NCBI GenBank assembly: GCA_003564135.1
Contig: PWNZ01000174.1
Location: 1 to 56,998, forward strand
Reading direction: 5' to 3'
Origin: Candidatus Cloacimonadota bacterium
Lineage (GTDB): Bacteria > Cloacimonadota > Cloacimonadia > Cloacimonadales > PWNZ01
DNA: 56,998 bases
The notes beneath the pieces are model-generated. The model was given only the letters and a program-made list of their open reading frames with translations. It did no database searches and was not told where the DNA came from. A program made the position numbers and the translations under genes. Below, piece by piece: positions 17,383 to 17,435 of this stretch. How positions within the stretch are numbered: the stretch's first letter is position 1; each line of letters begins with the position of its first letter.

Positions 17383-17435
17383 GTCGCCTGACCCGGTGTA
17401 ATAGAAAAAATGATTACACAGGTTAAAAAGGCGAC
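17383..17435 (-). repeat. Divergent copy F of the repeat-family hairpin module
   Basis: The reverse complement gtcgcc-tttttaacctgtgtaatcattttttctattacaccgggtca-ggcgac aligns with 56832-56882 and 1-48. The loop ttttttct and the flank tttttaac are conserved, and both stems differ by paired changes. Confidence 0.7.

Follow-up and report, generated by a model that had tools for sequence, protein, structure and literature searches.

REP and REPIN elements, known from E. coli and Pseudomonas and mobilised by RAYT (Y1 HUH) transposases, are imperfect palindromes of about 35 nt that lie between genes in either orientation, with copies numbering from the tens to the hundreds (PMC3116915, PMC3479197). 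They have a conserved foot and a free loop, cluster in composite arrays and are thought to act as folded single-stranded DNA; compensatory changes across the hairpin are reported to be common in REPINs (PMC3116915). MITEs and modular repeats such as Correia/NEMIS, BOX, RUP, ERIC and Nezha form a second group of non-coding, dispersed, hairpin-forming elements, which are likewise modular and break assemblies. The insertion sequences IS1397 and ISKpn1 are autonomous elements of about 1.4 kb that encode a transposase and target the hairpin loops of REP/PU elements. Integron attC sites and the end hairpins of IS200/IS605 elements are recognised as folded single-stranded DNA, with structure taking precedence over sequence and with extrahelical bases that mark the strand.

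The window considered here (the whole stretch of DNA analysed, 56,998 nt from a Candidatus Cloacimonadota bacterium) contains the signature TTTTTAAC-N-TTTTTTCT three times, at 3-28 (copy D), at 56838-56863 (copy C) and, on the minus strand, at 17403-17429 (copy F); it was found in none of 100 shuffles. In copy F the signature belongs to a hairpin of two tiers, in which a cassette that is itself a hairpin sits in the loop of a short carrier hairpin. The minus strand of 17383-17435 reads GTCGCC TTTTTAA CCTGTGTAAT CATTTTTTCT ATTACAC-C-GGG TCA GGCGAC, and in its fold the outer stem has 6 bp and the inner stem 10 bp; the inner stem has a single bulged C, and a T-tract is found on one side only. The copies and related features of the window are these:

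17383 to 17435, minus strand: copy F, a complete two-tier hairpin (carrier stem and cassette), the best covariance-model match (78.6 bits), which folds.
17430 to 17435, minus strand: 5' arm GTCGCC of the carrier (outer) stem of copy F, pairing with 17383-17388 in the minimum free energy (MFE) folds.
17392 to 17429, minus strand: cassette of copy F, TTTTTAACCTGTGTAATCATTTTTTCTATTACACCGGG, placed by sequence, model and alignment; it comprises the T-tract, a conserved stem base (CCTGTG/CAC-C-GGG), an upper stem (TAAT/ATTA) and a pyrimidine loop of 10 nt.
17383 to 17391, minus strand: residual carrier loop TCA followed by the carrier 3' arm GGCGAC, placed by sequence and by the rule that the junction falls between GGG and TY.
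17323 to 17338, plus strand: empty carrier-type hairpin GCCGGA-TTTA-TTCGGC in the same spacer as copy F, with the shared flank CCGGAACG before it.
56832 to 56883, plus strand: copy C, with carrier arm GCTGAC at 56832-56837, cassette at 56838-56874, then TTA, and carrier arm GTCGGC at 56878-56883.
1 to 48, plus strand: copy D, truncated by the window start, with the cassette at 3-39, TCA at 40-42 and the carrier 3' arm GTCGGC at 43-48.
37270 to 37285, minus strand: copy A, an empty form GCTGAC-TTCA-GTCGGT, with the carrier of copies C and D and no cassette.
55001 to 55016, plus strand: copy B, an empty and slightly degenerate carrier GCTGAC-TTTA-GGCGGC.
54917 to 54951, plus strand: cassette-like hairpin CCCTGTGGAATCTTCTTTTTTATTCCATCAGGG in the repeat core, matching model positions 13-47 of the covariance model (E 3.8e-4), with neither T-tract nor carrier stem.

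The closest analogues of this hairpin are the REP/REPIN elements. Like them, it is a high-copy intergenic imperfect palindrome, with about 129 covariance-model matches in the source genome (G000) and 94 of 102 full-length copies lying between genes, where a crude ORF call makes about 85% of the genome coding. However, two defining features of REP/REPIN elements, the associated RAYT and the GTAG foot, fail: the source genome has no RAYT, the Y1 genes of its relatives are not flanked by copies, and the cassette has on its 5' side T4-5 AA in place of a GTAG-type tetranucleotide. The tandem copies seen here also share one orientation rather than forming inverted doublets, and the cassette sits in the loop of another hairpin. 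With MITEs and modular small repeats the element shares its non-coding nature, its dispersal, its hairpins and its modular build, and in one relative (G025) the carriers have terminal inverted repeats and target duplications. The cassette itself is about a tenth the size of a typical MITE; judged as one, its arms serve as inverted repeats, but there is no evident duplication beyond an ambiguous single T, no insertion sequence in the source genome (the genome searched for these) matches its ends, and its target is a hairpin loop. That target, the loop of a repeated element, is shared with IS1397 and ISKpn1, although the insert here is a 35-nt hairpin without a gene. With attC sites and IS200/IS605 ends the element shares a structure more conserved than its sequence, extrahelical bases and, as we propose, recognition as folded single-stranded DNA. 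Unlike attC, it has no R''/R' boxes (RYYYAAC/GTTRRRY) and forms no cassette arrays, its copies being dispersed, and its outer arms are free sequence with the conserved part inside; unlike IS200/IS605, it has no LE/RE pair around a gene. We found no description of such repeats in the literature, nor any account of Cloacimonadota repeats. The element is an undescribed, lineage-specific variant of the selfish repeats that form hairpins, and the tidiness of its nested architecture is unusual.

Copies were collected with nhmmer and then with a covariance model built from 14 seeds, the source genome being an assembly of 2.87 Mb in 282 contigs, with 40% GC and 91.6% completeness. Seventy-four distinct full-length copies from this genome were aligned by MAFFT with no structural information, and in that alignment the inner helix is 81% paired. 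The covariation score of 0.309 exceeds that of all 500 shuffles (0.162 +/- 0.009), and partners slid out of register give at most 0.175. Paired substitutions which keep the pairing are general across the many copies of the genome. Of the 74 copies, 33 have G-C and 18 have U-A at pair 23-44; at pair 26-41 the counts are 33 A-U and 31 G-C, and at pair 27-40 they are 54 U-A and 13 C-G. RNAalifold finds the inner helix unaided from these copies. In 46 distinct copies from other genomes pairing stands at 94%, and double changes are seen at 12 of 19 pairs. All these counts score sequences and not events, and they are inflated by subfamily expansion; even so, the source genome alone has at least eight different pairings of the upper stem.

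What is invariant across genomes is TTTT(T)AACCYGTGAAAT...ATTTCAC-Y-GGGTYA, with the stem base TTTT(T)AACCYGTG / CAC-Y-GGGT conserved in its letters, and its sequence is therefore under constraint too. The outer stem, in contrast, is free sequence across genomes, and the loop may be as short as 7 nt or as long as about 25 nt. The imperfections, too, are conserved, and they are asymmetric: the T-tract is confined to the 5' side and the single extrahelical pyrimidine to the 3' arm. Taken together, the kept fold, these asymmetric imperfections and the variable loop length speak for a folded single strand and against a duplex palindrome. The commonest subfamily (that of copies C and D) has a G.A mismatch in its stem, so that a copy can spread without being fully paired. 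Some cassettes have expanded loops that hold a further arm, of the 5' type (TTGACCCGTGAAATC) or of the 3' type (ATTTCAC-TGTTACTCT-ATTTCAC), and are either cassettes within cassettes or slippage duplications (in the source genome, C258:21-115, C138:20214-20292, C240:11862-11941, C72:1161-1248, C172:6453-6547, C19:8180-8251, and on C218, C199 and C186). Two cassette subfamilies, one with the carrier CAGACC/GGTCTG and the other with CAGAGCA/TGCTCTG, are also found together as a fixed tandem pair, oriented alike and separated by about 8 nt, and are preceded by a shared module AATGCAGTGTTCAGACC (C182:3736-3852, C276:3354-3470, C26:149-266 and C210:16989-17148).

The initial annotation of the window had noticed compensatory changes that keep the hairpin paired between divergent copies, and this observation is confirmed. 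The inner stem TGAAAC/GTTTAA of copies C and D becomes TGTAAT/ATTACA in copy F as it described, with the pairs A-T and C-G swapped to T-A and a G.A mismatch repaired to G-C, and its account of the separate GC hairpin in copies A, B and C holds as well. For the outer stem, pairing is indeed kept through the changes, but both the register and the number of double changes (three) need revision. The register that holds family-wide for copies C and D is GCTGAC/GTCGGC, the 3' arm being the 6 nt right after GGGTYA, against GTCGCC/GGCGAC in copy F; it lies 3 nt further out than the gtcagt first proposed, and is backed by the MFE folds and by the empty carriers. Read in this way, copies C and D differ from copy F by two double changes (C-G to T-A and A-T to C-G) and by the conversion of a T.G wobble to C-G. 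The loop that had been called conserved, TTTTTTCT, is kept within the source genome but differs in others, being CAATTCA in G025, with an extra apical stem in other MAGs. The accompanying interpretation, that selection acts on structure rather than sequence and that covariation is its signature, is partly supported: the fold is kept while the letters of the upper and outer stems change, and the inner helix covaries, but the sequence of the stem base is conserved as well, and much of the variation in the outer stem reflects a cassette in differing carriers rather than compensation in place.

The evidence for such carriers is that in the source genome every type of outer stem has many empty twins, in which the loop consists of a T together with the spacer that follows the cassette on the 3' side in filled forms. 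Two carriers illustrate this:

Carrier GCTGAC / GTCGG: empty as GCTGAC-T(T)TCA-GTCGG (about 80 copies), filled as GCTGAC-T[TTTTAACC...GGG]TCA-GTCGG (about 25 copies).
Carrier CAAGGGCA / TGCCCTTG: empty as CAAGGGCA-TCT-TGCCCTTG, filled as CAAGGGCA-[TTTTAACC...GGG]TCT-TGCCCTTG.

Empty and filled forms are found likewise for the carriers CAAGAGCA, CAGACC, GCCGGC and GCYGGA, and empty twins of filled carriers occur in a few loci of CSMAG_498, SMBSF23, NIOZ-UU1 and CSMAG_514. The 3' junction falls between GGG and TY in 51 of 71 copies. In the family of copies A to D both flanks are alike in filled and empty forms, and on a tree of the upstream core the filled or empty state is unclustered, needing six changes of which at least three are forced by well-supported branches. 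The cassette is thus nested in its carriers and has been gained or lost recurrently, and a good part of the outer-stem 'covariation' arises because the same cassette sits in different carrier hairpins. Not all of it need be of this kind: the shared 5' flank (CGGAACG in copy F, CGGAGCG in copies C and D) suggests that these particular carriers are homologous and have diverged by paired changes.

The nesting is particularly clear in G025, which belongs to another family. Here 29 copies lie in an element of about 338 bp with perfect 19-bp terminal inverted repeats CACGCATCCCCCGAAAAAT and, in six of seven complete copies, direct target duplications of 9-13 bp. The terminal repeats and target duplications, together with a uniform length and the lack of an ORF, make this carrier a true MITE, and the length of the duplication suggests a parent of the IS4 type. 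The MITE has two hairpins, H1 (CCCACGAA-TTCA-TTCGTGGG) and H2 (CCCATGAA-TAAA-TTCATGGG, with the loop TTTA on the opposite strand). An identical cassette is found in H1 in one class of copies and in H2 in the other, and in H2 it is inverted relative to the backbone, exactly as a TTYA loop motif predicts. Read on the strand of the cassette, every junction has the form T[cassette]TCA or T[cassette]TTA, with the cassette 5' of TY. Inversion of the segment between H1 and H2 was considered as the source of the two classes and is ruled out, since arms and middle are collinear in both. Among the 20 loci (the MITE loci include L118-L129, L139 and L146), copies with both hairpins empty exist, and no doubly filled copy was seen.

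The family is lineage-restricted and patchy. Of 41 relatives, 11 match the covariance model; so do 15 of the 151 genomes sampled from the phylum (E up to 1e-8), which are confined to four families (f1, f8, f11 and f15, with f2, f3, f4 and f12 negative). A scan for the exact pattern in one genome per GTDB species (about 186,000) returned 65 stretches, 44 of them in Cloacimonadota MAGs and the others scattered in other phyla. Rfam gives only tRNA above the gathering score in the window, and nothing relevant at E up to 10 in 17200-17600. Placement is neutral with respect to orientation: 45 copies have the same direction as the upstream gene and 36 the opposite, there is no bias relative to flanking genes on either side, and local GC skew reveals no leading or lagging preference (38 cassette strands positive, 41 negative). 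Copy F itself lies in a 313-nt spacer flanked by the convergent ORFs 15302-17239 (+) and 17553-18557 (-), 117 nt 3' of the stop codon of the latter and in its sense orientation. No copy lies within 1.5 kb of the orthologues of gene 17553-18557 in G001, G008, G018 and G024, and in G001 the spacer downstream of the orthologue is only 14 nt; copy F is thus a lineage-specific arrival and not a conserved regulatory site. A metagenome scan for a strain-level empty site of copy F gave no matches. Degraded copies are common. Both ends of the window (1-163 and 56620-56998) and many contig ends of the assembly, which has 282 contigs, lie inside the repeat family, which probably causes much of the assembly fragmentation.

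No partner enzyme was found, and several candidates were set aside. There is no match to the Y1/RAYT domain (PF01797) in the source genome, which has the most copies, an absence that is not absolute at 91.6% completeness. Of the 41 relatives, 29 have Y1 genes, but their presence is unrelated to the number of hairpins, and none of nine checked (in G025, G001, G019 and G037) has a hairpin copy within 1.5 kb; a RAYT/Y1 partner was rejected on these grounds. An origin from TnpB and its omega RNA was likewise rejected, PF07282 being virtually absent from the order, and no long element or full-length insertion sequence bounded by the cassette arms was found in the source genome. Between copies B and C the window holds a 313-aa gene (55478-56419, minus strand) that belongs to an orphan family of 11 to 12 paralogues, with further members on contigs C54, C134, C72, C50, C266 (two copies), C131, C253, C216 and C28. 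They are 41-50% identical, share the motifs QMSHGxQQIK, NTPLRIRAR, YPYHLLK, NLRLKNFYF and YYAVN, and have no Pfam, PHROG or PDB match; several carry in-frame stops. The family is enriched near hairpin copies (six of 11 within 1.2 kb, against a background of 8.75%), but among the relatives searched it is found only in families f1 and f8 (G001, G008, G018, G024, G030 and G036), and it was discarded as a partner for being missing from the hairpin-bearing G019, G025 and G037. Purine-rich micro-tandem repeats (TAGTAGAATAG..., GATGTATGATG... and AAGGTTTAG x3) lie beside the orphan genes and in the repeat core, for example in the flanks of the paralogues on C131, C54, C28 and C266 and at 56685-56711 of the window.

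Whether the hairpin is used as RNA or as DNA bears directly on the meaning of its covariation. As RNA it could be a structured cis element or a small-RNA module (it might, for example, stabilise 3' ends, mark a site of processing or bind a protein), with the covariation reflecting host selection on RNA structure, and REP elements do stabilise mRNA 3' ends. The sense position of copy F behind a stop codon would suit such a role, as would its strong RNA fold, which has an energy of -20.0 kcal/mol (z -4.4) on one strand and of -23.5 kcal/mol (z -5.1) on the other. Folded as DNA, the two strands have z-scores of -4.3 and -4.5. The initial annotation had looked to folding on both strands, and to G-U pairs, to tell which strand carries the structure. 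Both strands fold, and the G-U pairs (156 on the top, displayed strand against 89 on the bottom) and pair 18-60, which is always Y:G (C-G or U.G) and never C.A, favour the top strand. However, pair 14-64, A:U or A:C in equal numbers, favours the bottom strand, and over 92 distinct copies the MFEs are equal (mean difference 0.11 kcal/mol, 41 copies against 50), so that the choice of strand by G-U pairs was abandoned. A promoter or terminator was also dismissed: the scan calls none on the hairpin on either strand, and the T-tract precedes the stem, with no U-tract after it. With no orientation bias towards upstream or downstream genes or skew, with the element missing from the orthologous locus in relatives, with degraded copies common and with no Rfam match, an RNA function is unlikely; the lack of orientation bias and the loss in orthologous loci in particular favour an element that acts at the DNA level, and we infer that it is recognised as DNA rather than RNA.

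Structural selection might also be dispensed with altogether. Palindromes can be kept by intrastrand template switching or by gene conversion between arms and between copies, and empty forms can be produced by slippage; hairpin deletion by slippage and quasipalindrome correction are both established mutational processes, and the scatter of filled and empty states on the core tree is also what recurrent deletion or recombination would give. However, template switching would remove irregularities from the stem, whereas both the extrahelical pyrimidine and the T-tract on one side have been kept from family to family, as has the stem base in all four, with the upper stem and loop left free. In G025 no doubly filled ancestor was seen, but empty/empty copies were, and cassette orientation follows the TTYA strand in both hairpins, which deletion does not predict; a purely mutational origin is accordingly rather improbable, and the cassettes would have entered by active insertion rather than have been lost by deletion. 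Mosaic recombination among repeats could nevertheless scatter the filled and empty states without insertion. Least probable, to a degree that makes it hardly credible, is that the hairpin never forms and that the palindrome is bound as duplex by a dimeric protein, whether as an operator, as a parS-like site or as a site for a transposase. The half-sites AACCYGTG and CACYGGGTT do form an inverted repeat, and the arms GTGAAAC/GTTTCAC equal what we take to be the half-sites of the parS consensus. The distance between half-sites ranges from about 21 to about 40 nt, too variable for a fixed dimer, and the freely covarying upper stem, the conserved asymmetry and the dispersal of some 100 copies are unlike parS or an operator; copy number, variable spacing and the free upper stem led us to set the parS resemblance aside.

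On balance we judge it probable, if not by a wide measure, that the hairpin is a copy of a non-coding, multi-copy, hairpin DNA element, REP- or MITE-like and specific to some Cloacimonadota, that is recognised as folded DNA by a putative protein. Such an element is probably selfish DNA. Its first tier is the cassette of about 35-38 nt, composed of T4-5, AACCYGTG, a free upper stem and loop, CAC, an extrahelical pyrimidine and GGG; its second is the carrier, a short hairpin that holds the cassette in its loop and is a module of MITE-like intergenic repeats. Copies would spread passively along with their carriers, and the cassette would have entered (or, less likely, left) carrier loops several times, always just 5' of TY and in an orientation set by the motif. 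The stems may stay paired since only copies that fold would be propagated or recognised, most likely as single-stranded or extruded DNA, the putative protein reading the stem base, the T-tract and the bulged base. Subfamilies derived from different master copies would then resemble covariation.

A bolder version of this proposal can be held only tentatively, as a possibility that we would not expect to prove right but take seriously. The cassette of about 35 nt may be a gene-less mobile hairpin that inserts, with specificity of site and orientation, 5' of TY in the loops of single-stranded DNA hairpins, by means of an enzyme that is neither RAYT nor TnpB, and that rides on MITEs.

The findings have several consequences. 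Repeats of this kind probably fragment Cloacimonadota assemblies. They provide an instance of statistically supported stem covariation in a bacterial repeat family, in a phylum that has neither a cultured model nor described repeats, and they call for caution in covariation-based RNA discovery, since part of the signal comes from a cassette in unrelated carriers, and what remains reflects repeat subfamilies replacing one another, with no host RNA gene behind it. That the site and the orientation of the cassette in hairpin loops are fixed, as found independently in several genomes, would, if insertion is active, point to a hitherto undescribed activity that processes DNA hairpins. If the cassette is indeed mobile in its own right, it would be among the smallest known mobile elements and would represent a new class, that of micro-transposons which invade loops; such a class might extend to the nested hairpin repeats of Cloacimonadota in general.
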